Assembly (NCBI GenBank): GCA_964637955.1
Contig: CAZWXQ010000002.1
Location: 71,782-135,781 of the forward strand
Length of the DNA stretch: 64,000 nucleotides
Source: an uncultured Gammaproteobacteria bacterium
GTDB lineage: Bacteria; Patescibacteriota; Microgenomatia; Levybacterales; UBA12049
Reading direction: 5' to 3'
Position 1 is the first letter of the stretch. Every line of letters starts with the position of its first letter. Under the pieces are notes generated by a model. The model did not search any database. It saw only the letters and a list, made by a program, of their open reading frames with translations, and was not told the origin of the DNA. Position numbers and translations under genes: made by a program. Below, piece after piece: positions 15,679 through 31,954 of this stretch.

Positions 15679-16377
15679 ATGATAGAAGAGCTCCGAAAGG
15701 ATTTACAGAAACTGTCCAACAAGAAAAGAGCTTCTGATATGCAAAAATTCTTCAAAACTGGGGAAGGAGAATATGCATACGGAGACGTCTTTATTGGTTT
15801 AACTGTGCCTCAGTCCAGAAAAGTAGCCGAAAAATATAAAGATATTTCGTTTGAAGATCTTTATAAATTAATTAGATCAGAGATTCATGAAGAAAGATTT
15901 ATAGCACTTCTTGTTTTAGTCAATAATTTTAGAGCAGATGAAATGTTACAGCGTAGGATTTATGAATTTTTTATGAAGAATATTAAGTTTGTGAATAATT
16001 GGGATTTGGTAGATTTGTCCGCTGATAAAATTGTGGGAGGTTATCTTATAGATAAGCCAAAGCATGTCCTATATAAGCTTGCTTCATCGAAAAATATGTG
16101 GGAAAGAAGAATAGCTATGATTGCTACGTACAATTTTATAAAAAATGAAATGTTTGATGATGCTATAGGTATTGCTGAGAAGCTAATTGAAGATGATAAT
16201 GATCTTATTCAAAAAGCTGTTGGTTGGATGCTTCGCGAAGTAGGGAAAAGAAATAAATCTATTGAAGAAGCGTTTCTTAAAAAACACCATAAGGAAATGG
16301 GAAGAACTGCGCTTCGTTACTCTCTTGAGAAATTCCCAGAGGACTCTAGAAAAGAGTACATGTTAGGAATAGTTTAA
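15679..16377 (+). CDS. DNA alkylation repair protein, AlkD/AlkC-like HEAT-repeat DNA glycosylase family (232 aa). The track ORF starts at 15634, but the promoter position argues for the ATG at 15679.
   Basis: Family signature ...NNWDLVDLSADKIVGGYL...SKNMWERRIAMIATYNFIK...LIQKAVGWMLREVGKRN.... The 15634 start would place the consensus promoter inside the coding sequence. Confidence 0.7.
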   Translation: MIEELRKDLQKLSNKKRASDMQKFFKTGEGEYAYGDVFIGLTVPQSRKVAEKYKDISFEDLYKLIRSEIHEERFIALLVLVNNFRADEMLQRRIYEFFMKNIKFVNNWDLVDLSADKIVGGYLIDKPKHVLYKLASSKNMWERRIAMIATYNFIKNEMFDDAIGIAEKLIEDDNDLIQKAVGWMLREVGKRNKSIEEAFLKKHHKEMGRTALRYSLEKFPEDSRKEYMLGIV

Positions 16378-17162
16378 ACTTCGAACTTTAGACATAAAGG
16401 AAGATGGTCGGAAACTACGTCTGACATAACTTTAAAATCATTCACCCAAATCCCCTTAGTTACAATTGCATAGTCTGCGAATAAATCCTCTTTTCTATAT
16501 AAAGGATCATAAAGTTTACTTCTTGTGGTTTTGGCTTTTGATTCTTTTGTTAAATTTCTCATTCCTACTTCTTCAAACATGAGAAGTGCTTTTGTTTCGA
16601 TTCTTAAATTAAAATCCCCAGCTATGATAGATGGTAATTTATTTTCTTTAATAAAGTCTATGATTCTTTGGGACTGAATAAATCTTTCAGGTGTATCAAT
16701 CTTGGGCGCAGGCTGCCAAAAGCCATGCACATTAAGAACTAAAAACTTATTATTTTCAATTTCTATTTCAGAGTAAATAAAATTTCTAGGAAAATTAAGT
16801 CTGCCATCGGGATAATATTCACTGGCATCATTAAATTTTTTATGCATAAAAATTTCTCCTTGGCGGTTAACTTTAACCCCTTTTTTTATAAATGTTGCTT
16901 GCCCAAATTCTAGAGGAAAATCCACTTTGCCTCGTGTATCATGGCCTTTTGCGGTGGGAGAGTAGTAGAAATCGAAATCAGGTAAATGTTTTATTAGATC
17001 ATTTATTATATTTGAATGTGAGGAATGAGTAATTACGTCGCGATCTGATCTAAAAACTTCTTGAAATAAAAATATATCCGCTTTATTTTTATGCTTGTCT
17101 ATAAAATTTAGTAGAGGTTTATAAACTTTTCCACCCCAAATATTAAGAGAAATGAGCAGCAT
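16374..17162 (-). CDS. endonuclease/exonuclease/phosphatase (EEP) family protein. Start moved to the internal Met at 17162.
   Basis: EEP motifs ISLNIWGG, DIFLFQEV, VLNVHGFW, IIAGDFNL and SDHLPLCLKFEV. The track start at 17339 would overlap the divergent gene by 188 nt. Confidence 0.65.
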   Translation of the reverse strand: MLLISLNIWGGKVYKPLLNFIDKHKNKADIFLFQEVFRSDRDVITHSSHSNIINDLIKHLPDFDFYYSPTAKGHDTRGKVDFPLEFGQATFIKKGVKVNRQGEIFMHKKFNDASEYYPDGRLNFPRNFIYSEIEIENNKFLVLNVHGFWQPAPKIDTPERFIQSQRIIDFIKENKLPSIIAGDFNLRIETKALLMFEEVGMRNLTKESKAKTTRSKLYDPLYRKEDLFADYAIVTKGIWVNDFKVMSDVVSDHLPLCLKFEV

Positions 17163-17184
17163 TAATTTATTATACACAGTATTG

Positions 17185-18861
17185 ATGTATAATTTGAATG
17201 TGAAGAAATTGTTCTTTTTAATTATTTTTATTTTCTCATTTTTTAGCTTCAAGGGTAACGTATTCGCTGAAAAAATTAATTCATACGATGTTGATATAGT
17301 TGCCCATAAAGATGGGAAAATGGATGTTACGGAAAACATTAATTATGACTTTGAAGATTTGGATAGGCATGGGATATTTCGAAACATTCCTCTTTATTCA
17401 AAAGTAGGAGATTTATATAGAATTATTAAAATCGAAAATGTAAAAGTCGAACGTGATGGAAAGAAAGAGAAATTTGAAAATTCTAGCACCCCTGAACAAA
17501 TATCTTTTAAAATTGGAGACGGAGATAAAACAATAACTGGTGCTCACGATTACAAGATTTCATATACTGTAGAAAATGCAATTGGGAGTAATTTCCCAGA
17601 GCATGATGAGATTTATTGGAATGCGACAGGAAATGCATGGAAAGTTCCAATTGAAAAAGCCTCGATTTCTATAAATACAGACTTTGGAGTAAAGCCAAAA
17701 AGCGTGGCATGCTACAGCAGAAATGCAAACTTAAATGCACAGTTTTGCAATTCCACTCCAGATGTTTGGAATCCAATTAAAACAACAAATACGATGTATC
17801 AGGGAGATGGTTTAACTGTCGTTTATGTTTATCCAAAAGGGACATTTCCTCCTACTACTCTTGTTCGGCAGCTTCCAAAAAAATTTGGAGAAAAATTTGG
17901 TAATTTTATTCTTAAACACATAACTTTTATCTATCTATTTATAAACATTTTTATTCCTGCACTTTTATTCCTTTGGTATCATAAAAATAAGAATAAAAAA
18001 AGATTTGGTCGTCCGACTGTCAATTTTGAAATTCCCAAAGATGATAATGGTGAAAGGATAGCCCCTGCTTTGGCTGGAACTATTGATAATGCTAAGCTTG
18101 AACGGGAAGATGTAACAGCGACTATTTTTGACTTGGCAATCAGAAAATACATAAAGCTTGAAGAAGAGGAGACGAAAAGAAAACTACTTCCAGATTCCAA
18201 AGAGCAAAAAATTATAAAACTAAAAGAAGATGATGGGAAATTAAATAATTTTGAGCTGAAATTATTTAATAGACTTTTTAAATCAGGAGATGAGGTAAAA
18301 ACATCAGATCTTCGAAAGGATTTTTATAAAACATATCAGGATATGGAAGATGAGGCTTTTCGTCAGCTTGTTGAAAAGAAATATTTTGTAAGAAATCCAA
18401 AAACCAGAAGAGGATTGCTAATTTTTGCTGGTGTAGCAACTTTATTTTTCGGAAACATTTTTCTCTCTGGAATGCTTTTCTTTTTATCTTATAAATTAAT
18501 TGGTAGAACAGCGGCTGGAGACGAGATAGATTATAAAATTGACGGTCTCAAATTATTTTTAAAATCTATGGATAGGAATTACAAATGGCAAGCAGATAAA
18601 TTTTATACAGTAGAGGCCATGATTCCTTATGCGATGAGTTTGGGTTATATAGATAAATTTATGGAGCAACTAAAGATAATAAAGCCTGATTATAATCCAA
18701 CATGGTATAGCGGATATCACGGGAGTTTTTATGCTTCATATGGAGCTTTTTATTCATCGGTAAGTTCAAATGTAACTACTTCAGCTCCATCCTCATCCTC
18801 TGGTTCTTCGGGAGGTTTTTCCGGAGGTGGCGGTGGTGGCGGTGGTGGCGGAAGCTGGTAA
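17185..18861 (+). CDS. DUF2207-like membrane protein. It has a signal peptide, an extracytoplasmic domain, TM helices and a C-terminal Ser/Gly-rich tail ending in a G10 run. The track start at 17152 is alternative.
   Basis: Signal peptide MYNLNVKKLFFLIIFIFSFFSFKGNVFA|EK, internal TM segments, and C-terminus SSSGSSGGFSGGGGGGGGGGSW. This architecture is typical of the DUF2207 family. Confidence 0.55.
   Translation: MYNLNVKKLFFLIIFIFSFFSFKGNVFAEKINSYDVDIVAHKDGKMDVTENINYDFEDLDRHGIFRNIPLYSKVGDLYRIIKIENVKVERDGKKEKFENSSTPEQISFKIGDGDKTITGAHDYKISYTVENAIGSNFPEHDEIYWNATGNAWKVPIEKASISINTDFGVKPKSVACYSRNANLNAQFCNSTPDVWNPIKTTNTMYQGDGLTVVYVYPKGTFPPTTLVRQLPKKFGEKFGNFILKHITFIYLFINIFIPALLFLWYHKNKNKKRFGRPTVNFEIPKDDNGERIAPALAGTIDNAKLEREDVTATIFDLAIRKYIKLEEEETKRKLLPDSKEQKIIKLKEDDGKLNNFELKLFNRLFKSGDEVKTSDLRKDFYKTYQDMEDEAFRQLVEKKYFVRNPKTRRGLLIFAGVATLFFGNIFLSGMLFFLSYKLIGRTAAGDEIDYKIDGLKLFLKSMDRNYKWQADKFYTVEAMIPYAMSLGYIDKFMEQLKIIKPDYNPTWYSGYHGSFYASYGAFYSSVSSNVTTSAPSSSSGSSGGFSGGGGGGGGGGSW
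18823..18852 (+). repeat. (GGT/GGC)n simple-sequence tract encoding the poly-Gly tail
   Basis: ggaggtggcggtggtggcggtggtggcgga. Confidence 0.6.
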
Positions 18862-19980: not shown

Positions 19981-20057
19981 TAGCCTTGATTCGAACTAAA
20001 AGGGAAGTAATTGGCCATGGCTTTTTCTGAAAAATATAAAATTAAAATTAAAAATGT

Positions 20058-20777
20058 TTATCTTTCTCCTCCAGGACGGTGGGTAGATTCGCCAGACAAG
20101 CGGGGGATGCCCAGAGGAGCGCGGGCTTCAAGAGCTTCCAGAACAGCTTGATTTACCTCAGCTTTAGGGCCATTTCCATCAATTCTTATTACATTTTCTC
20201 CAAAGCTTGCGATAATTGGAGCTGTTTGTTCATCATAAGTCCTAAGTCTTTTAGGTAATGTCTCTAGATTATCATCGGATCTAGGTTCAAGATTATTGGC
20301 TAGTCTTTCTGCAGTTCTTTTAATCATTCTTTCTTCAATTCTTTCAGGATCTACATCCAGAAAGACATAATCCATTTGAAGTGCTTCGCCAGGAAATCTC
20401 ATATCAAAATATTTAAGCATTTCTTCAGCCTGATCAAAATTTCTTGGAAACCCGGTCGAAATTATAGTAGTTGCACCTTTTTCCAGAGCTTGTTCTACCA
20501 TGAAAGGAAATACACTTTGCATAGGATTATTGAGGTTTATAACAGCTTCGGAGGGAAAGAGTTTGCCTTGATCAAGAAGTGATTGATAAGACTCTAAAAC
20601 TTCATGTAATGGATGATAAGGAGATTGCGCAGATCTTATTCCGTCTCCTGTTGAAATAACAGCAGAGTCGGGGATCAGTTTCTGAAGGAATTCGCCGGCG
20701 GTGTCTTTTCCTGCGCATGGCATTCCTGAAATAGTAATTATTCTATGTTTGGGTTGTGGTGTTGCTATATCTGACAT
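20058..20777 (-). CDS. adenylate kinase-like nucleoside monophosphate kinase with a ~40-aa C-terminal extension
   Basis: P-loop ISGMPCAGKDT, LDQGKLFPSEAV (Adk LVPDE-like) and GFPRNFDQAEEM (Adk DGFPRT..QA motif). GC is moderately above the local background. Confidence 0.6.
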   Translation of the reverse strand: MSDIATPQPKHRIITISGMPCAGKDTAGEFLQKLIPDSAVISTGDGIRSAQSPYHPLHEVLESYQSLLDQGKLFPSEAVINLNNPMQSVFPFMVEQALEKGATTIISTGFPRNFDQAEEMLKYFDMRFPGEALQMDYVFLDVDPERIEERMIKRTAERLANNLEPRSDDNLETLPKRLRTYDEQTAPIIASFGENVIRIDGNGPKAEVNQAVLEALEARAPLGIPRLSGESTHRPGGER

Positions 20778-20842
20778 ACAAAAAGCAGATTAGAGAAGAT
20801 TATATACCAAATATTTAAAAAAGCAATTCACCGTATTAAAAG

Positions 20843-20870
20843 TTGATTTTTTTTACTCATTAGGTATAAT
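20843..20870 (+). promoter_or_regulatory. sigma70-like promoter for the GT operon (TTGATT, 16-nt spacer, TATAAT)
   Basis: ttgatt ttttttactcattagg tataat. The -10 ends 14 nt before the ATG at 20885. Confidence 0.45.
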
Positions 20871-20884
20871 AGCAGCGCATCATA

Positions 20885-22072
20885 ATGAGAAAAAAGAAAA
20901 TTCTCATATATACTGTCCCTTTTGGTGGACACCTTTTTATCCTCAGAGATTTCGCAAAAAAATATAAAAATAAATTTGAAATAAAAGTAGTAATTACAGG
21001 TTGGGAAAATATTTCTCCAGATTTAAAAGGAATTGAAAAAGAATCAATTGTTTTGTTTGGATCCAAGCTTATGGTAACTGATCCTGGTATTTGGACTTTT
21101 CCTAGGGTAAATGAGCTTTTAGAGGAGTGTTTGAAAATTGCAAAAGACTTTTCGCCGAATATTATTTTATATGACTTTTTGTCCCTGGAAGGATATTTCG
21201 TTGGCCAGATTCTAGATATTCCGACATTTTCTTCAATTCCAGCAATGATAGGTCCAAACTCCAGAAAGAACTATTTGGATAAAAAATTAAGCTACCCAGA
21301 AAATAAAAAATCAATTAAAGATATTGAAAATAAATTTGGAATTTCCATAGATTTATCAAAGATTGAAATGATTTCTGATGGACTGCATATTCCAGGAAAA
21401 AATAATTTAGTTTGGTCATATGAATTCGTTTTGCCTTCAGACTGGAAAAAGAATAGATCAAAAGATAATTATTACTTCATAGGAAATATAAGAGCAAAGA
21501 AGCATGCGAAGGTGAAAAATAAAATTCCAGTAATTTATTTTTCTTTAGGAACTGTAGTGATGGGAAATCTATGGAATCAACAAGAGAATACTCGTGAAGC
21601 TTTAAGAAAATTTATTTATGAAATCTCTGAAAAATGGAAAAATGAAAAAGTAAAAGTAATATTTGTAAGTCAGGGAAAAGAAATATTAAGTAACTATCCT
21701 GATAATTGGAAAGTCTTTAATTTTCTAGATCAAATAAAAACTCTTCAAGAAGCGGACATATTTATAACTCATGCAGGAGGGAATAGTTTTAATGAGGCTC
21801 TTATTCAAAAAGTGCCTATGATATGTATTCCTTTTTTTGGAGATCAGCTTTTAATAGCGAGGCAAGTCGAGAAGCTAGGAATAGGAGTAAATCTTGTGAA
21901 AGACTCTAGGATTGATACAGATAAATCAAAAGACTTTTTAAATGAAGATTTGGTAATAAAGCTTGATAAAGCAGTTTGGAAAATACTGACCTCAAATAAA
22001 TATCAAAAAAACTTTGATAAAATTTCTACTGATCATGAAAATATTGAATGGGTTTTGAATAATCATATTTAA
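20885..22072 (+). CDS. GT1-family UDP-glycosyltransferase (MGT/OleD-like)
   Basis: C-terminal UDPGT signature HAGGNSFNEALIQKVPMICIPFFGDQLLIARQVEKLGIGV. Confidence 0.8.
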   Translation: MRKKKILIYTVPFGGHLFILRDFAKKYKNKFEIKVVITGWENISPDLKGIEKESIVLFGSKLMVTDPGIWTFPRVNELLEECLKIAKDFSPNIILYDFLSLEGYFVGQILDIPTFSSIPAMIGPNSRKNYLDKKLSYPENKKSIKDIENKFGISIDLSKIEMISDGLHIPGKNNLVWSYEFVLPSDWKKNRSKDNYYFIGNIRAKKHAKVKNKIPVIYFSLGTVVMGNLWNQQENTREALRKFIYEISEKWKNEKVKVIFVSQGKEILSNYPDNWKVFNFLDQIKTLQEADIFITHAGGNSFNEALIQKVPMICIPFFGDQLLIARQVEKLGIGVNLVKDSRIDTDKSKDFLNEDLVIKLDKAVWKILTSNKYQKNFDKISTDHENIEWVLNNHI

Positions 22073-22080
22073 TTATTGGT

Positions 22081-23022
22081 ATGAATAGAGAAATAATAAG
22101 CGGAAATAGGGACGAAAAGAGAGAGGTGTTATCAAATATTCATAGTTTTGGTATTGCTGGGGTATTTGATGCAAAACTTTTAAGTGATAAGCCGATTATG
22201 TTTGATGAAAAAGCAAATCTTTTAGGGCAAGCATATTTGCCTGGTTTTTCATATCAAGGTTCTCTTTCGCAAAATGAAGAAGTTTTTAGAATAATTCACA
22301 AAGAATCTAATGATGGATTTTTTCATCAAAGTGATGGTCAGGTTGAAATTCATGAAAATTGGGAAGGAAATTTGCCTTTGGATTTTTATCACCTTCTTTA
22401 TGGTATGAGTAGAAAGGAATTAGTTAATAAAGAATTGTATCCAGTTCATTCAATTTCGATTGGGAATGATGGAGAGCATTTACTTGTAGTTGGTCACTCT
22501 GGATTTGGGAAGACATCAGTGCTATTAAAGATGGTTGGGGAGCATGGAGCAAAAGTATTTTCTACAAATAAAACAGTTGTTTCATTCCAAGACGATGGAC
22601 TTAATGCAGTTTCTGGAACTAAAGCAGTTACGGCAAGAGATATAGTTTTCCAAAGATATTTACCAAATTTTGATGCTGCAAGATATCAAGACAGAGCGGC
22701 TGTTATTTTAACCGATGAAATGTATGAGGACAGTGAAGCTGTATCAATAAAAGGTGTTGTTATAGCTCGGGAAGATAGTGCTGTTTCTGAATTTGATCAG
22801 ATTTCAGGTGCCAGCGCAATGCACAAGCTTTATCCATTTTTTATGGATCAAATGAATGCAGATACCATTCTTTTAGATGGTAGTGCAGTTTTAGATGGAT
22901 CCTTGCCGCCTCAGGCAGGTAGAGATTTAGCTCAAAAATTGTCAAATGTCACAAAAAATATTCCAACATTTGCTATAACTGGATCCGTAGATTTTATAGC
23001 ACAAGCATTATCAAGACTATGA
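22081..23022 (+). CDS. P-loop protein with an HPr-kinase/phosphorylase C-terminal-like domain
   Basis: PVHSISIGNDGEHLLVVGHSGFGKTSVLLKMVGEHGAKVFSTNKTVV resembles the HprK Walker-A region G-x-S-G-x-GKS followed by the ...G..L.sDD segment. It sits between two glycosyltransferase genes and overlaps the downstream start (ATGA). Confidence 0.45.
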   Translation: MNREIISGNRDEKREVLSNIHSFGIAGVFDAKLLSDKPIMFDEKANLLGQAYLPGFSYQGSLSQNEEVFRIIHKESNDGFFHQSDGQVEIHENWEGNLPLDFYHLLYGMSRKELVNKELYPVHSISIGNDGEHLLVVGHSGFGKTSVLLKMVGEHGAKVFSTNKTVVSFQDDGLNAVSGTKAVTARDIVFQRYLPNFDAARYQDRAAVILTDEMYEDSEAVSIKGVVIAREDSAVSEFDQISGASAMHKLYPFFMDQMNADTILLDGSAVLDGSLPPQAGRDLAQKLSNVTKNIPTFAITGSVDFIAQALSRL

Positions 23023-24143
23023 AAACACAAAAAATATTATTTGGCGTAACAGGAATCGGACTAGGACACTCGTGTAGACAAATGCCGCTAATTGATTATT
23101 TTTCAAAAAATTCAACTGTTGTTATTTTTGCGTATGAAAGTAGCTTTGATTTCCTAGCTTTAAGATTTGGAAAAAATAAAAATATTAAAATAAAAAAAGT
23201 GGCAGTGCCTTTTTATGTAGGGAATAAAGATGGATTGGATTTTAAAGCAACAATGATTCATCCAGCAAACAAAAATATAAATTTTCTAGATATTAATTCA
23301 AGAACTATTTCTGAAACAGTTAATTTGATTGGATCCCCAGATTTAGTAATATCTGATTATGAACCAATAAGCGCACAGTATGCGTATATGAAAAATTCTC
23401 CTTTTGTAACCATTGATCAGCAAAGTAAATATTTTGTAGCAAATTTTCCTAAATCTTTAAACGTATTTACTTACAAAGATGAAATTGAAAGATTAAGTAT
23501 GTTTTTCCCAAAAGCGGATCTTAGAATTGCATGTTCATTTTTTAATATTAAGAAGAAGAAATCAAGATTTGACGTTCAAATAGTTCCGCCAGTTATGCGT
23601 GAATCGATTATTAATATGAAAAAAATAAAAGAGAAAGATCGAAAAAATATTCTTGTTTATATCTCTTCTGCCAGGGATTTTCCATTATCAACCCATAAAA
23701 TATTAACGACTTTAGGTGCCATTTTTGATATTAATTTTTATATTTTTCTTTCAAGATCTGATAGAAAAATAAAGTATAAAAGTTGTCCTGAAAATATTTC
23801 CCTTATTAATTTTGGAGAAGAGGGTTTTGAAGAAGTTCTCAAAAAAGCGAATGGAATAATCACTAGCGCAGGACACTCGCTTTTATCAGAAGCGATGTTT
23901 CTTGGAATTCCAGTTTATGTAATCCCTGTTTCTCCGTATGAACAGCATATGAATGCTAAAGTTATAGATGAAAATGAATTTGGAGTTAGTGAAAAAACAA
24001 TTTCAGAAAGCAAAGTTAATTATTTTATAAATAATCTAGATAAGTTTGAAGAAAATATTCTTAAAGATAAAAAACAATTGTTAAAGGGAATAGGTCAAGA
24101 TAAAATTTTAGCTCTTTTGAGGGAAAATTTCGGAATAAAATAA
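23019..24143 (+). CDS. MurG-like/GT28-type glycosyltransferase
   Basis: N-terminal FGVTGIGLGHSCRQ (GGTGGH-like). C-terminal SAGHSLLSEAMFLGIPVYVIPVSPYEQHMNA (Glyco_tran_28_C-like). Confidence 0.65.
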   Translation: MKTQKILFGVTGIGLGHSCRQMPLIDYFSKNSTVVIFAYESSFDFLALRFGKNKNIKIKKVAVPFYVGNKDGLDFKATMIHPANKNINFLDINSRTISETVNLIGSPDLVISDYEPISAQYAYMKNSPFVTIDQQSKYFVANFPKSLNVFTYKDEIERLSMFFPKADLRIACSFFNIKKKKSRFDVQIVPPVMRESIINMKKIKEKDRKNILVYISSARDFPLSTHKILTTLGAIFDINFYIFLSRSDRKIKYKSCPENISLINFGEEGFEEVLKKANGIITSAGHSLLSEAMFLGIPVYVIPVSPYEQHMNAKVIDENEFGVSEKTISESKVNYFINNLDKFEENILKDKKQLLKGIGQDKILALLRENFGIK

Positions 24144-24279
24144 TTACATTTATTTGTTAGTTAGGTATTTTTAGCGGTGATTATTTATGTTGGTCTGAAA
24201 TTCCTGCCGCGTCTGCTGGAGCAAGGGAAAATGGTTTCCTTCAGTGATTTAGGATTTGATTTTAAAAAATGCCATTAAT

Positions 24280-24525
24280 TTAAATTAAAATTTCGAAAAC
24301 TTTAATTTTTGATTTTTGGCCATTCAAAAGAATTATATTTGATCTCGATGTTTTAAAATATTTAGCTAACGAATTTATGATAGCTGCATTTGCACGACCA
24401 TCTATAGGTGGCTCATTTACATAGATATGTAAGGTGTCTAATAGATCTTTTTCAATTCTTATTTTCTTTGCATTAGGATGGGCAATTACATTAATCTTCA
24501 TAATGTGATTGTAGTAGTATAGCAA
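24280..24525 (-). CDS. DUF167/YggU (UPF0235) family protein
   Basis: INVIAHPNAKK..., VNEPPIDGRANAAIINSLAKYF and ILLNGQKSKIKVFEI match the family pattern. Confidence 0.7.
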   Translation of the reverse strand: MLYYYNHIMKINVIAHPNAKKIRIEKDLLDTLHIYVNEPPIDGRANAAIINSLAKYFKTSRSNIILLNGQKSKIKVFEILI

Positions 24526-24553
24526 TTTAAATAAACTTTGTTATAATTGCCGA

Positions 24554-26236
24554 ATGGCTTTACCAGAAATAACTACTGATAATCGTAGGCATAATGTAGA
24601 TAAAATTGCGGCTGGAAATTTTGGCGAACTTCATTCAGCTCCACAACATTGGAATGAATTTCTCGACATTGGAGTGATGCCAGCAAGAGAAAGTTATGAT
24701 CAAATTAAAAAACTCCCAACTTCTGAGTTTTTAACACACATAAATGATATTGCATTTCGTACAGTTGCTTCTCCTGATTATCGAGATCCAGAAACGGGTT
24801 ACATTTCAAGAGATGCATGGAAAAGACTTATTGATGGGGGAATTTTAGCATCAGGATTTGAAGATAGAGATCCCTCTAATAGGCTAGAAGAGATGATGCA
24901 GACTGCAAAAATTCTTTCTTATTATGACATTAATTTAGGATTATCTGCAGGAATTACAGTTGCACTTGCAATCCTTCCAATTAAAAGATTTGGTTCAGTT
25001 GAGCAAAAAGAAAAGTATTTAAATCAGATTAGAGACGGAAAAATGATTGGTCTTGGAATTACAGAGCTTTATAGATCAGGTTCATCAGCTTTGGATATGG
25101 ATTCAAAATACACTATAAATGGAAAAGTGCAGCAGGTTAAGTCTTCAGATGAATTGCAGGACGGAGAAGTAATACTTCTTGAAGAGGGCAAGGAATTAGT
25201 TGAAGTTGAAGGGCAAACTGTAGATTTAAAATTTTCTAAACATCTCCAGGGTTTGTCAGGTCAGGATGGTCTTATAATAGCTGCTGTTCATGATGGCCCA
25301 AGCAAGAAGATAGGGCTATTTATTGTTGATCAGGAAAATATTGACACACAGTTAACCCAAATGGTGGGACTTCATGGAATTCCATATGGCATAAATACTG
25401 GAGATGTGACTTTAAGTGTTAAAGATCATCTAATGCAAGAGCTTCCTAGAAAAAGAATAGTTGATGAATTTGCTGATATGTTTACGAAAAGCCGAATTTT
25501 ATTTCCCAGTATGGTACTTGGCCATTTACTAAGGACAGAAGCTGAGGTTGAAAGTTTTGCTAGCGAGAGGATGATAGGTGAAAATCTTCAAAAAGATATG
25601 GAGGTCCCAAGAGATCAATTGGATTTAATAAGGTCCCGAAGAATAGTATCTGAAGCCATTTTTGATAGACTTGTGAATTTCCGAACAGAAGAGGGGGAAT
25701 CATTATTAACAGCTGATACAACTAAATATATGATGGAAGCAGGTATAGTTAAGGTACTTACTACTGAATATGCAGTCGCCTCTGCAGCTGATAGAGCTGA
25801 GTTAATGGGAGCAGCAGCTTTTTATAAAGGAAGTGGTCTTCAAGATTATAATAATATTTGGCCATTTCAGATTTTTGAGGGTTCGAGGAAGATGCTCAAT
25901 ACTGATATAGGAAGAGACTTTGCAAAAGGCATAAGATTTAGAGATGTAAGAGGAGATTTTTTTGGACAACTAAGTAGTGGAGTAAATATGGAAGAGGGGA
26001 TATTTGAAAGCGTATTGGAGATGAGAAAACGCACTGGCAAATCTGCTCGACATCAACAAGTTCTAGGTCAAATTGCTCAAAGAGCCTTTGCGCTTGAGTG
26101 TCTTGATCCAGAAAAAATAAGTTCTGAGGATTTTCAAAGAGCAAGTAAAATGCTTAATCTTGAAATTCGACATCTTACTCTAGATTTTGATTCGCTTCCT
26201 TTTTCTAATGCTCACGAAAAAGAGCAAGTTTTATAA
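24554..26236 (+). CDS. divergent acyl-CoA dehydrogenase-family protein (560 aa, longer than canonical ACADs)
   Basis: Middle-domain-like MIGLGITELYRSGSSALDMDSKYTINGKV and C-terminal FQIFEGSRKMLNTDIGRDF (cf. RIYEGTxEIQ). The weak match makes this a family-level call only. A TATAAT box lies at 24541-24546, 7 nt before the ATG. Confidence 0.45.
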   Translation: MALPEITTDNRRHNVDKIAAGNFGELHSAPQHWNEFLDIGVMPARESYDQIKKLPTSEFLTHINDIAFRTVASPDYRDPETGYISRDAWKRLIDGGILASGFEDRDPSNRLEEMMQTAKILSYYDINLGLSAGITVALAILPIKRFGSVEQKEKYLNQIRDGKMIGLGITELYRSGSSALDMDSKYTINGKVQQVKSSDELQDGEVILLEEGKELVEVEGQTVDLKFSKHLQGLSGQDGLIIAAVHDGPSKKIGLFIVDQENIDTQLTQMVGLHGIPYGINTGDVTLSVKDHLMQELPRKRIVDEFADMFTKSRILFPSMVLGHLLRTEAEVESFASERMIGENLQKDMEVPRDQLDLIRSRRIVSEAIFDRLVNFRTEEGESLLTADTTKYMMEAGIVKVLTTEYAVASAADRAELMGAAAFYKGSGLQDYNNIWPFQIFEGSRKMLNTDIGRDFAKGIRFRDVRGDFFGQLSSGVNMEEGIFESVLEMRKRTGKSARHQQVLGQIAQRAFALECLDPEKISSEDFQRASKMLNLEIRHLTLDFDSLPFSNAHEKEQVL

Positions 26237-26374: not shown

Positions 26375-29194
26375 ATGATTCAAATAATTAGAGTATTTTC
26401 AAAAAATGAAAGTGATGATTTAAAAGGGAAAGAAATTTTAAATCAATTTAAAGATCCGAATATAAAAAAGTTAAGGACTGCCAGAATTTATAGACTTGAG
26501 GGAGTAGATAGGAAAACTGCAAAATTTTTGGCAGAAAAGTTATTCTCCGAGTCAATAAGCCAAGATTATTCTATTGATAAACCCATATTTGTTGTTAAAT
26601 CAAAAGTTGAAATAGCATATAAACCCGGAGTCATGAATCCTGAAGTTGCTTCTATCTTAAAAGCAGCGAAAGATTTGAAGATAAAATTACTCGCAGCGGA
26701 TTCATCAACTGAATTTTATTTTTTTGGAAAAATTGAAAATGCAAAAGCACTAGAATTAATTAATAAGCACCAAATATATAATCCACTTATAGAATACATT
26801 GTAGAAAAATCTCCCAAAACACTTTTTATTAAAGGAAAAATTGGATCAACAAGAATAATTGGAATTCGAATAATGTCAAATGAGGAAATGATGTTTTTGT
26901 CAAAAGACAAATTGTTTTTAAATCTCGAAGAAATGAAAGTTATTCAAAGTTACTTTCAAAAAATTAAAAGAGATCCAACGGATTTAGAGTTAGAAACACT
27001 GGCTCAAACTTGGAGCGAGCACTGCGCCCATAAAACGTTTAAAGCAGATTTAATAATCGATGGTAAAAAGAAAAAGCCTTTAATTGATCGAATTCGAGAT
27101 GAGGCTTTGAAGCATGACGAGAATATCGTTTCAGCATTTGGCGATAATTCTGGAGTAATGAGATTTTATGATGGGTTTTCTATTTGTGGGAAAGTAGAGA
27201 CCCATAACAGCCCCTCTGCAATTGAGCCTTACGGTGGAGCAATGACCGGATCTGGTGGGGTATTTCGAGATATTCTCGGTACTGGGCAAGGAGCAAAAAC
27301 TATCGCATCAACTGATATTTTTTGTTTTGCAAATCCAGATTTAAGCAAAAATGATTTACCACCAGGATGTCTTAGACCGGAATATCTTTTAAAAAGAGTA
27401 GTGATGGGAGTAAGAGATTATGGAAATAGAATGGGAATTCCAACAAATAATGGTTCCGTACATTTTCATAATGATTTTCGTGCAAAACCCACAGTTATAG
27501 TCGGTGCATATGGAATTATTCCTACAAAAAAAGCTAAAAAAGGAAAGCCTGCAAATGGAGATTTAATTATTGCTGTTGGTGGAAGGACAGGGAGAGATGG
27601 AGTTCATGGTGCTACTTTTTCCTCTGCAGAAATGACTGATAAGACAATTTCTATCAATTCATCTGCAGTTCAAATTGGAAATGCGATTGAAGAAAAAAGA
27701 ATGTTCGATGCAATAATTGAAGCCCGTGATCAGGATTTAATACGAGCAATCACAGATTGTGGAGCTGGAGGATTTTCTTCAGCAATTGGTGAAATAGGAT
27801 CAGAAACTGGAGTTAAAGTAGATTTGTCTCTTGCACCTCTTAAATATCACGGACTTTCTCCTTGGGAAATTTGGGTATCAGAATCTCAAGAAAGAATGAT
27901 ACTCGCAGTATCGAAAAAGAGCAGTAAAAAAGTTTTAGAAATTTGTAAAAAGTTTAATGTGGAGGCAACAGTGCTTGGTAAATTCACAAATACAAAAAAA
28001 CTAGAAATATTTTATGGAAAAAAACGAATTGGTAATTTGTCGATGGAGTTTCTGCATCACGGATTGCCTCAAAGAACTATGGTTGGAAAAAAACCAAGAG
28101 TTAAGATTGTGTCTAAAAAAGAACAAAGTGTTCCAAATAATGAAAAAGAATGGATCGACGTTTTTAAGAAAGTTCTAGCGAATGGAAATGTAAATTCTAA
28201 AGAGCCAATTGTAAGAATGTACGATCATAGTGTTCAAGGAACAAATGATTTACAGCCGTACGGAGGAGTAGATCTAGATGCGCCAAACAACAGTGCAGTT
28301 CTTAGGCCGATTCTAAACAAAAAATATGGAATGGTTTTGTCTCACGGCTTAAATCCTGTTTTAAATAATATCGATCCATATGGTGGAGGTATTTGGGCTG
28401 GAGTCGAAGCTCTAAGTAATTATGTCTCAGTCGGAGGAGATATAGAAAATGCATCTTTAATAAATAATTATATTTGGCCATTTCCAGATGAAGAGTCTTT
28501 ATGGTCACTTGATAAATCAGTTGACGCAGTAATCGATTTAATGAAAGGTTTAAAAATACCAGTTATATCTGGAAAAGATAGCTTATCTTCCACATACAGA
28601 AAAGGAGACATGGTTATTAAAATTCCTCCGGTTTTATGCATTTCTGCTTTTGGGAGAATTCCTGATACAACAAAAACTATAAGTTCGGATTTAAAAAAGG
28701 ACAGCTCACTAATTTGCTTGATAGGTAATTTGGACACTGATTCTATGGGAGGATCTGTATATTTTGATGTGAACAATTTGATTGGAGATAGTGTTCCAAA
28801 AATAAACTTAAAAGAATTCGGAAAGCTTGCTAAGCAAATAAATAAAGGGATTGTAAGCGGAGATATTTTATCTTGTCATGATATTTCAGAAGGTGGAATT
28901 CTAACTTCTGCTTTTGAAATGTGCATAGGAGGAAATATTGGCATGAGTTTGAAAATTTCAAAAAATAAAAGGCCAGATTATTTCTTATTTAATGAAACGG
29001 CAGGAACTTTTTTAATAGAAGTAGAAAATAAAAAAATAGCAGAAAAAATATTTGGAAAAAATAATTTTATAGTTCTAGGAAAAACACAAAAAGAAAAATC
29101 AGTTGATGTAATAAATGGTGAAAAAATATTTAGTGCAGATTTGTTCGAATTAAAAAAAGCTTGGCAAAAACCAATGAAGAGAATATTTTCATAA
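26375..29194 (+). CDS. purL: phosphoribosylformylglycinamidine synthase subunit PurL with two PurS-like domains fused at the N-terminus (PurS-PurS-PurL, 939 aa)
   Basis: PurL core WSEHCAHKTF...GGAMTGSGGVFRD...TDCGAGGFSSAIGE. It is preceded by ~200 aa containing two ~85-aa modules (MIQIIRVFSKNE... and VKSKVEIAYKPGVMNPE...) with PurS-like beta-alpha topology. Confidence 0.85.
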   Translation: MIQIIRVFSKNESDDLKGKEILNQFKDPNIKKLRTARIYRLEGVDRKTAKFLAEKLFSESISQDYSIDKPIFVVKSKVEIAYKPGVMNPEVASILKAAKDLKIKLLAADSSTEFYFFGKIENAKALELINKHQIYNPLIEYIVEKSPKTLFIKGKIGSTRIIGIRIMSNEEMMFLSKDKLFLNLEEMKVIQSYFQKIKRDPTDLELETLAQTWSEHCAHKTFKADLIIDGKKKKPLIDRIRDEALKHDENIVSAFGDNSGVMRFYDGFSICGKVETHNSPSAIEPYGGAMTGSGGVFRDILGTGQGAKTIASTDIFCFANPDLSKNDLPPGCLRPEYLLKRVVMGVRDYGNRMGIPTNNGSVHFHNDFRAKPTVIVGAYGIIPTKKAKKGKPANGDLIIAVGGRTGRDGVHGATFSSAEMTDKTISINSSAVQIGNAIEEKRMFDAIIEARDQDLIRAITDCGAGGFSSAIGEIGSETGVKVDLSLAPLKYHGLSPWEIWVSESQERMILAVSKKSSKKVLEICKKFNVEATVLGKFTNTKKLEIFYGKKRIGNLSMEFLHHGLPQRTMVGKKPRVKIVSKKEQSVPNNEKEWIDVFKKVLANGNVNSKEPIVRMYDHSVQGTNDLQPYGGVDLDAPNNSAVLRPILNKKYGMVLSHGLNPVLNNIDPYGGGIWAGVEALSNYVSVGGDIENASLINNYIWPFPDEESLWSLDKSVDAVIDLMKGLKIPVISGKDSLSSTYRKGDMVIKIPPVLCISAFGRIPDTTKTISSDLKKDSSLICLIGNLDTDSMGGSVYFDVNNLIGDSVPKINLKEFGKLAKQINKGIVSGDILSCHDISEGGILTSAFEMCIGGNIGMSLKISKNKRPDYFLFNETAGTFLIEVENKKIAEKIFGKNNFIVLGKTQKEKSVDVINGEKIFSADLFELKKAWQKPMKRIFS

Positions 29195-29196
29195 AA

Positions 29197-29982
29197 ATGA
29201 AAAAACCAAAAGCAATAATTATAAAAGCGGACGGAATTAATAGGGATTATGAAATGATGTTTGCGTTTAATCTTGCAGGAGCAGATGCAAAGGTCGTGCA
29301 TATTAACGACTTAAGATCAAAAAAAGAAATATTAAGTGACTATCAGATTTTGGGAATTCCAGGAGGATTTGCTTATGGAGATGATATAGTTTCAGGAAAA
29401 ATATTGGCAACGGAAATGATCGCATATCTTGGAGATGAAATTAGAAAGTTTGTAAAACGCTCAAATACAGCAGTGATTGGGGTTTGTAATGGATTTCAGG
29501 TTCTTGTGAGAACGGGACTTGTACCATTTGGAAATCTTGGGGAGATGGATGTGACTTTAGTAAATAATGATTCAGGACATTTTGAATGCAGATGGGTAAG
29601 AGTGAAAGTGGAGAATAATTCTAAATCAAAGTTTTTAAAAAATATCGAGGACGAAATATTTTGGTATCCGGTAGCGCATGGTGAAGGAAAATTCATTGCA
29701 GATCCAAAAATTATCTCACGAGTTGAAAAAGAAAATTTAGTTACGTTTAGATATGTCGATGAATCTGGATTACCAACTCAAAACTATCCAGAAAACCCAA
29801 ATGGTTCAATTAATGCAATCGTTGGGATAAGCGATGAATCTGGAAGAGTAATTGGGCTTATGCCTCATCCTGAATGTTTTGTTAGAATCGAGCAGCATCC
29901 CAACTGGAGAAGGGGAGGTGTAAAATCTCCTGACGGATTACCTTTATTTAAAAATATTGTTGATTTTGTAAAAAAGGTATGA
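29197..29982 (+). CDS. purQ: phosphoribosylformylglycinamidine synthase glutamine amidotransferase subunit PurQ. Start at the ATG at 29197; the track start at 29161 is an in-frame TTG inside purL.
   Basis: MKKPKAIIIKADGINRDYEMMFAFNLAGADAKVV..., GIPGGFAYGDD, the nucleophile in IGVCNGFQVL, and the HPE motif in GLMPHPECF. Confidence 0.85.
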   Translation: MKKPKAIIIKADGINRDYEMMFAFNLAGADAKVVHINDLRSKKEILSDYQILGIPGGFAYGDDIVSGKILATEMIAYLGDEIRKFVKRSNTAVIGVCNGFQVLVRTGLVPFGNLGEMDVTLVNNDSGHFECRWVRVKVENNSKSKFLKNIEDEIFWYPVAHGEGKFIADPKIISRVEKENLVTFRYVDESGLPTQNYPENPNGSINAIVGISDESGRVIGLMPHPECFVRIEQHPNWRRGGVKSPDGLPLFKNIVDFVKKV

Positions 29983-30836
29983 AGATTGGATTATTCTCAA
30001 CATTTGCAGATAAGGAAGCATATGATTTAGTTAACGCTGTGCAAGACAGTGTTTCAACGGGAAAAATACCAGATTCAGAGATTTCATTCGTTTTTTCTAA
30101 TCGAGATATTGGCGAGAATCCTACCACTGATAGAATTTTAGGAGATTTGATACATCGAAGGTTCCCCTTGATTAAATCTTCTGCATATAAGTTTGATACA
30201 CGTGGTAGAGTTTTGGCAAGAATAGCTGAATCCGGTGGAGATGAAAGGTTAATCAAAGATTGGCGAAATAGATATGGGGAAGAGATTCAGAGGAAATTAC
30301 CCGACACGGATATTGATTTGCTATTAGGAGACATGTGGATATGGGGAGACAGAATGGTAAATGAACGCACTGCATATAATCTGCATCCAGCACTTCCAGG
30401 GGGCCCCAAAGGTGAATGGTATAAAGTAATTTGGGATTTAATAGAGCAAAACGAGGAAAAGGCAGGAGTGATGATGCATAAATTAACTCCTGAGCTCGAT
30501 GAAGGGCCACCAGTTTCATTTGCAGAATATTCAATAAGAGGACCAGAGTTTGATTACTTATGGCCATTATTGCCACCTGATCCCGAGCATAGGCAAATGG
30601 TTATTGATCATGAACGATCACTTCGAGGAAAAACTAGACATCCACTCCATAAAGAAATAAGGGAAAAGGGTTTTGCGCGAGAAATACCATTGGTAATTCA
30701 AACGACAAAAGCTCTGGCTGAGGGTAGGATTGAGATTGAAGGAGGAGCGCCAGTAGATCTCACTTGGGAAGTTGATCAGGCATTAAATTTGCGATTGCAA
30801 GGAATAGAAGGACAATCAAGAAAGGAGGTGAATTAA
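29979..30836 (+). CDS. PurN-like formyltransferase (GAR transformylase family) with a ~80-aa C-terminal extension
   Basis: YNLHPALPGGPKG (PurN NLHPSLLP), LDEGPPVSF (PurN DAGPII catalytic Asp region) and ISFVFSNR. ATGA start overlap with purQ. GC is clearly elevated. Confidence 0.6.
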   Translation: MKIGLFSTFADKEAYDLVNAVQDSVSTGKIPDSEISFVFSNRDIGENPTTDRILGDLIHRRFPLIKSSAYKFDTRGRVLARIAESGGDERLIKDWRNRYGEEIQRKLPDTDIDLLLGDMWIWGDRMVNERTAYNLHPALPGGPKGEWYKVIWDLIEQNEEKAGVMMHKLTPELDEGPPVSFAEYSIRGPEFDYLWPLLPPDPEHRQMVIDHERSLRGKTRHPLHKEIREKGFAREIPLVIQTTKALAEGRIEIEGGAPVDLTWEVDQALNLRLQGIEGQSRKEVN

Positions 30837-30838
30837 TT

Positions 30839-31954
30839 ATGGATTTAAAACCAAAAGTTTTATTTACAGACGGAGAAGGGCCATTGGTAAAACTTGATTT
30901 AGCACAAGAAATAATGGGAAGAATTACCTTTGAACATCAAGGAGAAGAAATTAATGGAAAAGATTTTTTTGGTATCTTAAGTTTCTATGATGATTATCTT
31001 GCAGAAGTTGGGACAGAGGGCTATCAGGCAGGGGATACTCTGGCGCTTATTGGGCCTCATCTTATAGCGCATGGAATTACCGATGAGGATGTTTTGGAAG
31101 AAGCAAGAAGAGCTGAGGTTTCTCCAGGAGCTGAAGCATATATTTCAGGATTAAAAGGAGATGGATGGGACGTAAGAGTTATTTCAACAGCATACAGACC
31201 CATGTGGGATTTGGTTGGAAATTATCTCGGGATTCCTAAGGAGGATATTGCTTGTACTGATCTTTCTTTATCTAGTTTAAGACAAAGATATGGAAATGAT
31301 GATTTCAATTCTTTCGTTCAAATGAGAGAACAAAGCATTCTTGGTTTAATGAGTCTTGCAAAAGAAGCGATGGAAACTCCTGGGAGCGTGGTGGATGTGT
31401 TTAACAATCTTAAATTCCACGAACTTCGAGACACATTGAATGAATTTTATTTTAAAGATTTACGTCAGTGGTTTGGCTATGAAACTCTTGAAGCGATCAG
31501 GGTCATGGGAGGCAGGAGAAAGGTTGAAGCAGCACAAAGATTCGCAAATGATTTGGGAGTAGATATGGGGAGCATTGCTTATGTGGGAGATAGTATTACG
31601 GATAAAGCAATGATGTTTGAGTTGAGAGAAAGAGGCGGACTTCCAATCGCTATAAATGGAAATGATTTTGCTCTTGAAGGAGCAGTTGCATCTGTTGCAA
31701 CTAAAGATAATGTGGGAGCGGTTCGTCCTCTTCTTGATGCATGGCAAGGGGGCGGTATTGACGAGGTTTCAAGATTTGTAAGACAATCACATGAGCCTAT
31801 TTCATTTGGTCGAGAAAGAGAAGCGGGACATGAAAGACCTGATGGGGCACAGTACTGGATTAGGTTAAATGGAGAAGCATTTTTGCCAAATGAAAAAGCT
31901 GCTCATAAAGCAGCTAGAAAAGAAATAAGAGGAATAGCAGCTGATCTTGGGTAG
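30839..31954 (+). CDS. hypothetical protein with HAD-like motifs (371 aa)
   Basis: VGDSITDKAMM (HAD motif IV-like GDxxxD) and N-terminal FTDGEGPL (degenerate motif I). Assignment is weak. GC is elevated. Confidence 0.4.
   Translation: MDLKPKVLFTDGEGPLVKLDLAQEIMGRITFEHQGEEINGKDFFGILSFYDDYLAEVGTEGYQAGDTLALIGPHLIAHGITDEDVLEEARRAEVSPGAEAYISGLKGDGWDVRVISTAYRPMWDLVGNYLGIPKEDIACTDLSLSSLRQRYGNDDFNSFVQMREQSILGLMSLAKEAMETPGSVVDVFNNLKFHELRDTLNEFYFKDLRQWFGYETLEAIRVMGGRRKVEAAQRFANDLGVDMGSIAYVGDSITDKAMMFELRERGGLPIAINGNDFALEGAVASVATKDNVGAVRPLLDAWQGGGIDEVSRFVRQSHEPISFGREREAGHERPDGAQYWIRLNGEAFLPNEKAAHKAARKEIRGIAADLG

Follow-up and report, generated by a model that had tools for sequence, protein, structure and literature searches.

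The operon and its closest described counterparts

This report concerns a three-gene operon in a 64,000-nucleotide stretch of contig CAZWXQ010000002.1 (the whole stretch is called the window below), in which a P-loop protein of the phosphoenolpyruvate carboxykinase (PEPCK)/HprK superfamily is encoded between two glycosyltransferases (GTs). Among described proteins, the closest to the middle gene product are HprK/P, the HprK-related kinases A and B, ScmC and the lasso-peptide kinases (PsmK), with which it shares a homologous core of about 50 residues, in which a beta-strand carries a conserved His 15 positions ahead of the Walker A motif GxSGxGK(S/T) and a helix and a strand come after it. HprK also resembles it in length (about 300 amino acids) and in having the P-loop near the middle of the chain. 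PckA (PF01293), a PEPCK, matches the same protein as a two-domain fold and has in common with it a GxSGxGKT-type P-loop and a His about 15-16 residues upstream. For the third gene product the counterparts are the MJ1255/VC2487-family GTs and MurG (GT28), the latter marked by a Gly-rich loop near the N-terminus, with His as its last residue, and by the donor motif E...Q..NA near the C-terminus. At the level of pathways, the logic that may apply here is that of blasticidin S (BlsM/BlsD) and mildiomycin (MilA/MilB/MilC) biosynthesis, in which a base is freed from a nucleotide, N-glycosylated by a GT-B enzyme and tailored further; in the case of amicetin two GTs build a disaccharide on cytosine. 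Cytosylglucuronate (CGA) synthase (BlsD/MilC) couples free cytosine to UDP-glucuronate (PMC3715490), the base having first been freed from CMP by the nucleotide hydrolase MilB (PMC11784345). In vicine/convicine synthesis, GTP cyclohydrolase II (GCHII) VC1 acts before a UDP-glucosyltransferase, a precedent for the conversion of GTP to a pyrimidine glucoside (bioRxiv 10.1101/2020.02.26.966523).

The operon and its relatives, referred to together as the cassette, differ from each of these pathways. Known nucleoside antibiotic pathways include neither an HprK/PEPCK-type kinase nor a GT of family PF13528, unlike the cassette, and their radical-SAM decarboxylase, aminotransferase and peptide-ligase genes are not present in cassette loci. 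Their hosts are actinomycetes, whereas those of the cassette are uncultivated low-GC bacteria, Melainabacteria and Proteobacteria. The vicine pathway is a plant pathway with no kinase and no second GT. The features of the operon itself are as follows.

20843-20870, plus strand: promoter-like TTGATT-16 nucleotides-TATAAT, 14 nucleotides 5' of the gene 1 ATG
20885-22072, plus strand: gene 1, 395 amino acids, GT1/UDPGT glycosyltransferase of the GT-B type, predicted soluble (PF00201, TIGR01426)
22081-23022, plus strand: gene 2 (middle gene), 313 amino acids, two-domain P-loop protein of the PEPCK/HprK superfamily, predicted ATP-dependent phosphotransferase
22423-22611, plus strand: HprK-homologous core of gene 2 (residues 115-177), from HMMER alignments to 1ko7 and 1jb1
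23019-24143, plus strand: gene 3, 374 amino acids, PF13528 (Glyco_trans_1_3; MJ1255/VC2487-like) GT-B glycosyltransferase, predicted soluble

These genes form a genuine operon. The sequence-only reading of this DNA had described them as tightly packed, and so they are, with 8 nucleotides between genes 1 and 2 (22073-22080; the earlier figure was 9) and an ATGA overlap at 23019-22 shared by genes 2 and 3. Because the gene that follows gene 3, encoding a DUF167 protein, is convergent with the operon, the unit consists of exactly three genes. The site described earlier as a near-consensus promoter is, judged from its letters, a plausible promoter of the operon; it matched at 10 of 12 positions and was the top-scoring site in 20000-24700, but the number of promoter-like sites in that AT-rich region (26, versus 20.6 +/- 4.6 in shuffles) was not in excess. 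There was no obvious Shine-Dalgarno sequence at the start of gene 1 and no convincing intrinsic terminator 3' of gene 3, the 136-nucleotide spacer after gene 3 folded no better than shuffled sequences (z = -0.01), and an Rfam scan of the window matched no RNA element. The window is chromosomal, with a GC content of about 34%, and purine-biosynthesis genes lie downstream of the operon. Identical copies of the operon were noted on two short contigs (L001 and L002) from other sequencing runs, apparently of the same organism. No hydrophobic or membrane segment was found in any of the three operon proteins.

Family relationships of the three proteins

The middle protein is a member of the HprK/PEPCK superfamily at the level of family and fold, as indicated by profile comparisons and a predicted structure. 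To that extent its earlier description as a homologue of the HprK C-terminal domain stood; taken alone, however, the protein matched no Pfam model and thus neither PF07475 (at E<=0.1) nor PF01293. Single-sequence searches of Pfam, NCBIfam and the PDB returned only generic P-loop matches apart from one to TIGR04355 (HprK_rel_B; E=0.0055, 15.9 bits versus a cutoff of 200). Three and later eight relatives were recovered in a word-indexed homologue search with the middle protein, and an exhaustive profile search identified 444 cluster representatives of the family in 1.84 billion proteins, 175 of them below 1e-30. HprK-family similarity was evident among these relatives, in every case at scores below the family cutoffs. 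Thus, PF07475 was matched by 37 of 84 members (cutoff 33.3 bits; e.g., P0008, 25.1 bits), HprK_rel_B by 50, HprK_rel_A by 28, hpr-ser by 19 and ScmC by 17. The best E value was 1.8e-7 for TIGR00679 (19 of 84 members; cutoff 240 bits) and 6.4e-10 for the models of HprK-related kinases A and B (TIGR04352/TIGR04355). Aside from weak matches to PEPCK_ATP in 17 of the 84, HprK types were the only specific families matched.

Comparison of the middle-family profile with the HprK chain 1jb1 gave an E value of 3.2e-4, and in HMMER alignments to HprK chains no gap interrupted the stretch from the conserved His through the Walker A motif to the strand after it. With this alignment transferred to the window protein through the family alignment A3, His123 was placed 15 residues before the Walker A motif G138-HSGFGKT-S146 (nucleotides 22492-22518). 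Over 154 members, H123 was conserved in 150, K144 in 153, R205 in all 154 and D256 in 152, and from its residues the protein is predicted to be catalytically competent. The Asp-Asp of HprK (LxADD) is replaced in the window protein by T162-N163; across the same 154 members, position 162 was mostly Gly while position 163 was Asn in 118 and Asp in 35.

An AlphaFold2 model of the middle protein, built from an 84-sequence alignment, had a pLDDT of 95.4 and a pTM of 0.92 (an earlier model from a 3-sequence alignment, with a pLDDT of 42, was discarded). The top 50 matches to this model in a Foldseek search of the PDB were all PEPCKs, aligned over the whole query (best E 3.6e-11, probability 1.0, TMq 0.57, range 0.50-0.58), so that the best whole-chain structural matches are to PEPCK instead of HprK. 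The likeness to PckA is limited by length (about 530 versus 313 amino acids), by an identity of 11-14% at a root-mean-square deviation of about 7 A, by the absence from the middle protein of the Asp-rich metal motif that follows the P-loop in PckA, and by a genetic context unrelated to gluconeogenesis. The context differs also from that of HprK systems; the middle gene is accompanied by no HPr, PqqD, precursor or cyclase gene, and its obligatory partner is a GT-B glycosyltransferase. HPr, Crh and components of the sugar phosphotransferase system were not recognised among the scanned open reading frames (ORFs) of the window or related loci, and no PqqD gene was called in any related locus. The middle protein belongs to a family of its own, neither HprK/P nor PEPCK, which is not covered by Pfam or NCBIfam.

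Assignment of gene 1 to the GT1 family, as previously proposed, was borne out by a PF00201 (UDPGT) score of 47.7 bits, well above the gathering score of 19.5. Matches to TIGR01426 (MGT; 1.7e-28, 99.8 bits) and NF033129 (macrolide-inactivating GT; 51.7 bits) were under the respective cutoffs of 260 and 700 bits, and the closest relatives of solved structure were YjiC-type UGTs (6.7e-18) and OleD/OleI. Recognisable motifs were PFGGH near the N-terminus and the C-terminal nucleotide-sugar motif THAGGNSFNEA...PFFGDQ (i.e., THAGGNS...E...GDQ).

Gene 3 encodes a bona fide member of PF13528 (133.5 bits versus a cutoff of 25, E 1.2e-38, with residues 5-340 of the protein aligned to positions 2-321 of the 322 in the model), which fell under the cutoff of TIGR00661 (2.6e-32, 112 versus 196 bits). 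The earlier description of its product as a MurG-like GT28 enzyme can be retained only at the level of motifs and superfamily, as judged from the N-terminal Gly-rich loop GxxGxGxGH, the C-terminal GHxxxSE...P...EQxxNA and a Glyco_tran_28_C score of 22.0 bits, exactly at the cutoff. Identification of gene 3 as MurG was rejected because its murG (TIGR01133) score was 20.7 bits versus an equivalog cutoff of 250.25, because no mur or fts genes lie beside it and because the protein, in this respect unlike MurG, has no membrane segment or other feature of membrane association. It has no close relative among solved structures, and no PF13528 member of known function was found in the literature.

Conservation of the cassette in other loci

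A search of gene neighbourhoods for the triad recovered it as a conserved unit. The comparative set covered several phyla and comprised 18 distinct related loci, with hosts that included Obscuribacterales/Melainabacteria, Magnetococcales and an alphaproteobacterium in addition to metagenome and Logan contigs of 28-57% GC; a scan of metagenome contigs contributed only two of the loci. In 18 of 18, the PF13528 GT gene was directly downstream of the middle gene, usually with overlapping stop and start codons (adjacency was listed for the window, L003, L004-L017 and L019-L027). Since these two genes are not only always adjacent but in some cases fused, their coupling is more than chance, and the triad represents a true functional unit that has been conserved. 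The middle family is rare and yet phylogenetically widespread.

A second gene of GT-B size was nearly always present and defined two forms of the cassette, with two loci that fitted neither. In form B, the window type, the second GT is a GT1/UDPGT enzyme, and this form was found at seven independent loci. The GT1 gene comes first in the window, L003, L019, L023 and L024, the last four being the closest relatives of the window locus, and last in L017 and L020-22. Orthologues of gene 1 with 45-56% identity over essentially full length were present in the cassettes of L003, L017, L019, L020 and L023, while in L024 the last 50 residues of an orthologue, 40% identical, were found at the contig edge. 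The order in form A is a PhyH-like dioxygenase (phytanoyl-CoA dioxygenase type), a protein called X382, the middle gene and the PF13528 GT gene (GT13), often followed by a His_Phos_1 phosphatase. X382, a protein of 370-400 amino acids with no Pfam match and no PDB sequence match, was located at L004:8860-10008 with homologues in L007-L014 and L026, always between the dioxygenase and the kinase-like middle gene. The two remaining loci, L015 and L016, have no second GT and carry a more HprK-like subfamily of the middle protein. Gene order in L015 is APH-type kinase, middle gene, GT13, and genes for an EEP-family protein, a carbamoyltransferase and a His_Phos_1 phosphatase are found nearby, and in L016 it is middle gene, GT13, methyltransferase.

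Several types of fusion were noted, namely X382-mid, X382-mid-GT13, PhyH-X382-mid-GT13 (1412 amino acids), mid-GT13, a permuted mid-GT13-X382 (P0144) and NUDIX-mid. The middle protein was fused to the PF13528 GT in P0045, P0086, P0087, P0089, P0098, P0114, P0119, P0123, P0137, P0139, P0144, P0145 and P0148. Such fusions argue strongly for joint action of the components on a single substrate.

In L017 (977-2604 and 7399-9131), the cassette is flanked by Fic, GNAT, tyrosine integrase and ORF6N/Rha-like genes, and Bro-N and PT-HINT genes are near that of L020-22; because of these flanking genes, some copies of the cassette may be on mobile islands. A defence function was considered and rejected, PADLOC having returned only a P-loop match to mad8 (E=0.0064) and IMG/VR no relatives of the middle family on viral contigs.

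A candidate pathway, its rivals and the surrounding genes

The explanation that we favour, tentatively and as something rather less than probable, is that the operon encodes a cytoplasmic three-enzyme module in which two nucleotide-sugar-dependent GTs and an ATP-dependent PEPCK/HprK-type phosphotransferase act in turn on the same soluble small molecule, which may be nucleobase-derived. The product of the cassette is probably a phosphorylated, sugar-decorated small molecule. The enzyme classes, the strict genetic coupling across phyla, the fusions and the conserved kinase-type residues are established features of the cassette, and from these we infer the nature of the acceptor, with help from the neighbours described below, and the order of steps, from gene and fusion order only.

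A link to nucleobases was suggested by the first GT of the sister form. The sole NCBIfam match of X382 proteins, in 8 of 8 tested, was to TIGR04467 (CGA_synthase) over the full length, with E values of 1.7e-21 to 4.8e-23 and about 77 bits versus the equivalog cutoff of 300. These scores indicate that X382 is a remote full-length homologue of cytosylglucuronate synthase rather than an equivalog, in keeping with the comparison to blasticidin S and mildiomycin biosynthesis. Enzymes that process nucleotides recur as neighbours of the cassette. In L003 and L023, which have a five-gene version, genes for a GCHII-like and a LOG-like protein are directly upstream of GT1-mid-GT13 (L003:7173-8809 and L023:1779-3423; 62-64% identity between loci). 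The GCHII-like protein, of 367-369 amino acids, keeps the RibA zinc motif C-x10-C-x-C and matched GTP cyclohydrolase II models weakly (22.7 bits versus a ribA cutoff of 206), its length being twice that of RibA; the gene after it encodes the LOG-like SLOG protein (LDcluster4/TIGR00725, 4.2e-29), an enzyme of the nucleotide N-glycosidase type. Both precede a UDPGT-family GT, and this gene order fits a route, comparable to that of vicine, from GTP to an aminopyrimidine aglycone to a glucoside. In L017 and L025 the gene immediately before the middle gene encodes an ITP/XTPase-family NTPase_I-T, in L020-22 the middle protein carries a fused NUDIX domain and a HIT protein is encoded nearby, and a NUDIX gene and a dCMP-deaminase fragment are near the cassette in L014. 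The His_Phos_1 phosphatase downstream of the cassette in L004-L010 and L015 bears a weak likeness to CobC (alpha-ribazole phosphatase). The base could come from the action of the LOG-like, NUDIX and NTPase partners, and since the first GT of the sister form is a CGA synthase homologue and nucleotide-processing genes recur beside the cassette, a nucleobase-linked acceptor appears the best candidate. ABC or MFS exporters adjoin some cassettes, and the product is possibly soluble and perhaps exported.

The proposed pathway would start from a base or other heterocycle released from a nucleotide, the acceptor thus being a nucleobase or nucleotide-derived heterocycle. Gene 1 (GT1) would attach a first sugar to this aglycone, and the middle enzyme would phosphorylate the resulting glycoside; a small substrate is favoured over a protein for this enzyme because it would suit the two-domain PEPCK-like cleft. 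The PF13528 GT would then attach a second sugar, and its MurG-like Gly-rich loop could grip the phosphorylated acceptor. In many relatives, a histidine phosphatase may finally take the phosphate off. The pathway would yield a disaccharide "pseudo-nucleoside" that is phosphorylated, if only transiently.

Several observations weigh against this explanation. Proteins or peptides are the substrates of every HprK-type kinase characterised so far, and none is known to use a small molecule. The window protein has Asn163 in place of the catalytic Asp of HprK, and the chemistry may therefore differ from simple O-phosphorylation. The order of domains in the P0144 fusion does not follow the proposed order of steps. 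In hhalign comparisons of X382 with either GT of the window the probability was 2-3%, and gene 1 did not match TIGR04467 even at E<=10, its product being MGT-like and not CGA-synthase-like. The window locus, moreover, has no base-releasing or base-supplying gene adjacent to it, the GCHII-like and LOG-like genes of L003 and L023 being absent. The idea of a nucleobase acceptor draws on relatives and is weakest for the window locus, because gene 1 has no similarity to CGA synthase and no base-supplying gene is adjacent.

The most serious rival, in itself unlikely, is that the HprK-type enzyme phosphorylates a Ser of a peptide or protein encoded elsewhere and that the GTs add hexoses to the phosphate or to nearby residues. 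It would agree with the substrates of every characterised HprK relative and with the nearest NCBIfam models, namely HprK_rel_A, HprK_rel_B and ScmC, all of which belong to putative peptide-maturation cassettes. PhyH-type hydroxylases, moreover, can act on peptides. A precedent exists in the lasso peptide pseudomycoidin, in which an HprK-type kinase is involved and the C-terminal Ser carries a phosphate to which a mono- or dihexose is attached; one related cluster has a recognisable GT (PMC6993621). The sequence-only reading, which had proposed a glycosylated or phosphorylated peptide as one possible substrate, had itself seen no precursor-peptide ORF nearby, and a scan of 20778-20884 and 24144-24279 for short ORFs likewise found none credible, only ORFs that overlapped genes and one GTG ORF of 33 amino acids. 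Nor was there a PqqD gene or recognition element (RRE) for ribosomally synthesised and post-translationally modified peptides, a lasso cyclase, a leader peptidase or other protease gene, or a conserved small ORF at the window locus or any related one. The best structural match of the middle protein, a two-domain PEPCK with a small substrate in the interdomain cleft, and the recurrence of nucleotide-processing enzymes and a homologue of a nucleobase GT as partners also argue against a peptide.

The presence of a His_Phos_1 phosphatase gene directly downstream in many loci raises an improbable second alternative, a sugar-phosphate or compatible-solute route in which the kinase would make a phosphorylated acceptor or sugar-1-phosphate, the GT would glycosylate it and the phosphatase would free the solute. 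Routes of the sucrose, trehalose and glucosylglycerate type, as well as maltokinase/GlgE logic, work by sugar-phosphate steps, and the APH-type kinase that accompanies the pair in L015, along with a carbamoyltransferase, is from a family that includes maltokinase. The enzymes are all soluble by sequence, with no hydrophobic segment, as such a route would have them. However, GT1/MGT-type enzymes and CGA synthase homologues use aglycones or bases, not sugar phosphates, and the PhyH dioxygenase, GCHII, LOG, NTPase and NUDIX partners would be left unexplained. The rare, patchy distribution (444 clusters in all proteins searched) also speaks against it.

Inactivation of a xenobiotic or antibiotic, by glycosylation and phosphorylation of a macrolide-like or lipophilic compound, is a distinctly improbable reading. 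The best NCBIfam matches of gene 1 were to macrolide-family and macrolide-inactivating GTs, and a relative had a weak match to Rgt, but the macrolide GT scores are far under cutoff. Obligate coupling and fusion, like operon partners of the GCHII-like, LOG-like and PhyH types, are features unlike those of known resistance genes, and the window offers no plasmid or resistance-island context. A glycolipid or cell-envelope modification of the MurG, YpfP or teichoic type, an earlier suggestion for which gene 3 offers MurG-like C-terminal motifs, a borderline GT28_C match and weak matches to diglucosyl-diacylglycerol synthase, is scarcely likely given the murG score, PRK13609 scores of 17-26 versus 500 bits, the lack of a membrane segment in the three proteins, the lack of a flippase, polyprenyl-phosphate transferase, lipoteichoic acid or wall teichoic acid gene in any locus, conserved neighbours that process nucleotides rather than belong to the envelope, and the fact that no annotated teichoic-acid or glycolipid function turned up for the triad.

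With regard to the favoured small-molecule module, its fullest version is possible but doubtful. In this version the cassette would make a metabolite of an undescribed class, in which a nucleobase or GTP-derived heterocycle bears a disaccharide that is phosphorylated, if only transiently, and the producers would be uncultivated bacteria including Melainabacteria. Among HprK relatives, the middle enzyme would be the first shown to use a small-molecule glycoside instead of a protein as its substrate, and it would work as an obligate and often fused partner of a PF13528 GT. A literature search on PF13528, TIGR00661, MJ1255 and the combination of HPr kinase, glycosyltransferase and phytanoyl-CoA dioxygenase returned nothing relevant. 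Each part of the cassette falls within a known superfamily. No description of the middle family, of its obligate pairing and fusion with PF13528 GTs or of the complete cassette appears to exist in Pfam, NCBIfam, PADLOC or the literature that could be searched.

The genes that flank the operon had been described earlier as adenylate-kinase-like (ADK-like), DUF167 and acyl-CoA-dehydrogenase-like (ACAD-like), identities that were upheld:

20058-20777, minus strand: ADK-like protein, divergent from the operon across a 107-nucleotide spacer, absent from all related loci
24280-24525, minus strand: DUF167 protein (Pfam/NCBIfam scan)
24554-26236, plus strand: ACAD-like protein, 560 amino acids, matching the acyl-CoA dehydrogenase N-domain only (1.9e-6)

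The suggestion that these flanks belong to a tailoring module was not sustained; all three were absent from every related locus, as determined by tblastn over L001-L013 (which matched only the same-strain L001 and L002) and, for later loci, by gene tables and ORF scans. What survives of the small tailoring module with an HprK-like kinase is the module itself, without the flanks and without the lipid, peptide or envelope substrates. The ADK-like protein scored below every NCBIfam adk cutoff (best, 79 versus 187 bits) and has a Pro/Gly/Arg-rich C-terminal tail. The ACAD-like protein has weak similarity to the PigA/RedW prolyl-carrier-protein dehydrogenases, and its middle and C-terminal ACAD domains were undetected.

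Elsewhere in the window, an EEP-family ORF at 16374-17339 (minus strand) overlaps a DUF2207 ORF at 17152-18861 (plus strand) by 188 nucleotides as listed. The part of it that resembles the EEP gene next to the L015 cassette (37.5% identity, E 6e-46) is confined to 16380-17162, and the true start of the ORF is therefore probably near 17165. EEP genes are also near the cassette in L004 as well as L015, which may reflect an accessory link or coincidence. A 2256-amino-acid ORF at 4380-11150 (plus strand) has as its sole Pfam match Methyltransf_11 at residues 1910-2011. The purine operon (26375-31954, plus strand) encodes PurQ separately from a 939-amino-acid PurL that lacks a glutaminase domain; these are followed by a 285-amino-acid ORF without a Pfam match (29979-30836) and a HAD-like ORF of 371 amino acids. 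The protein encoded at 34538-35710 (minus strand) combines a Peptidase_C39-like domain with TPR repeats, and no ABC transporter domain lies next to it.

If the favoured explanation is true, it would provide a first function for the middle HprK/PEPCK-like family, for PF13528/TIGR00661 GTs and for the CGA-synthase-like X382 family, and it would add small molecules to the proteins and peptides on which HprK-type kinases are known to act. The module is compact, with three predicted soluble enzymes and a promoter-like site in 3.3 kb, and hence experimentally tractable. Known hexopyranosyl nucleosides, among them blasticidin S, mildiomycin and amicetin, inhibit translation potently, and the product of the cassette would, if the explanation holds, be a new nucleoside-like natural product or signal from poorly known lineages.

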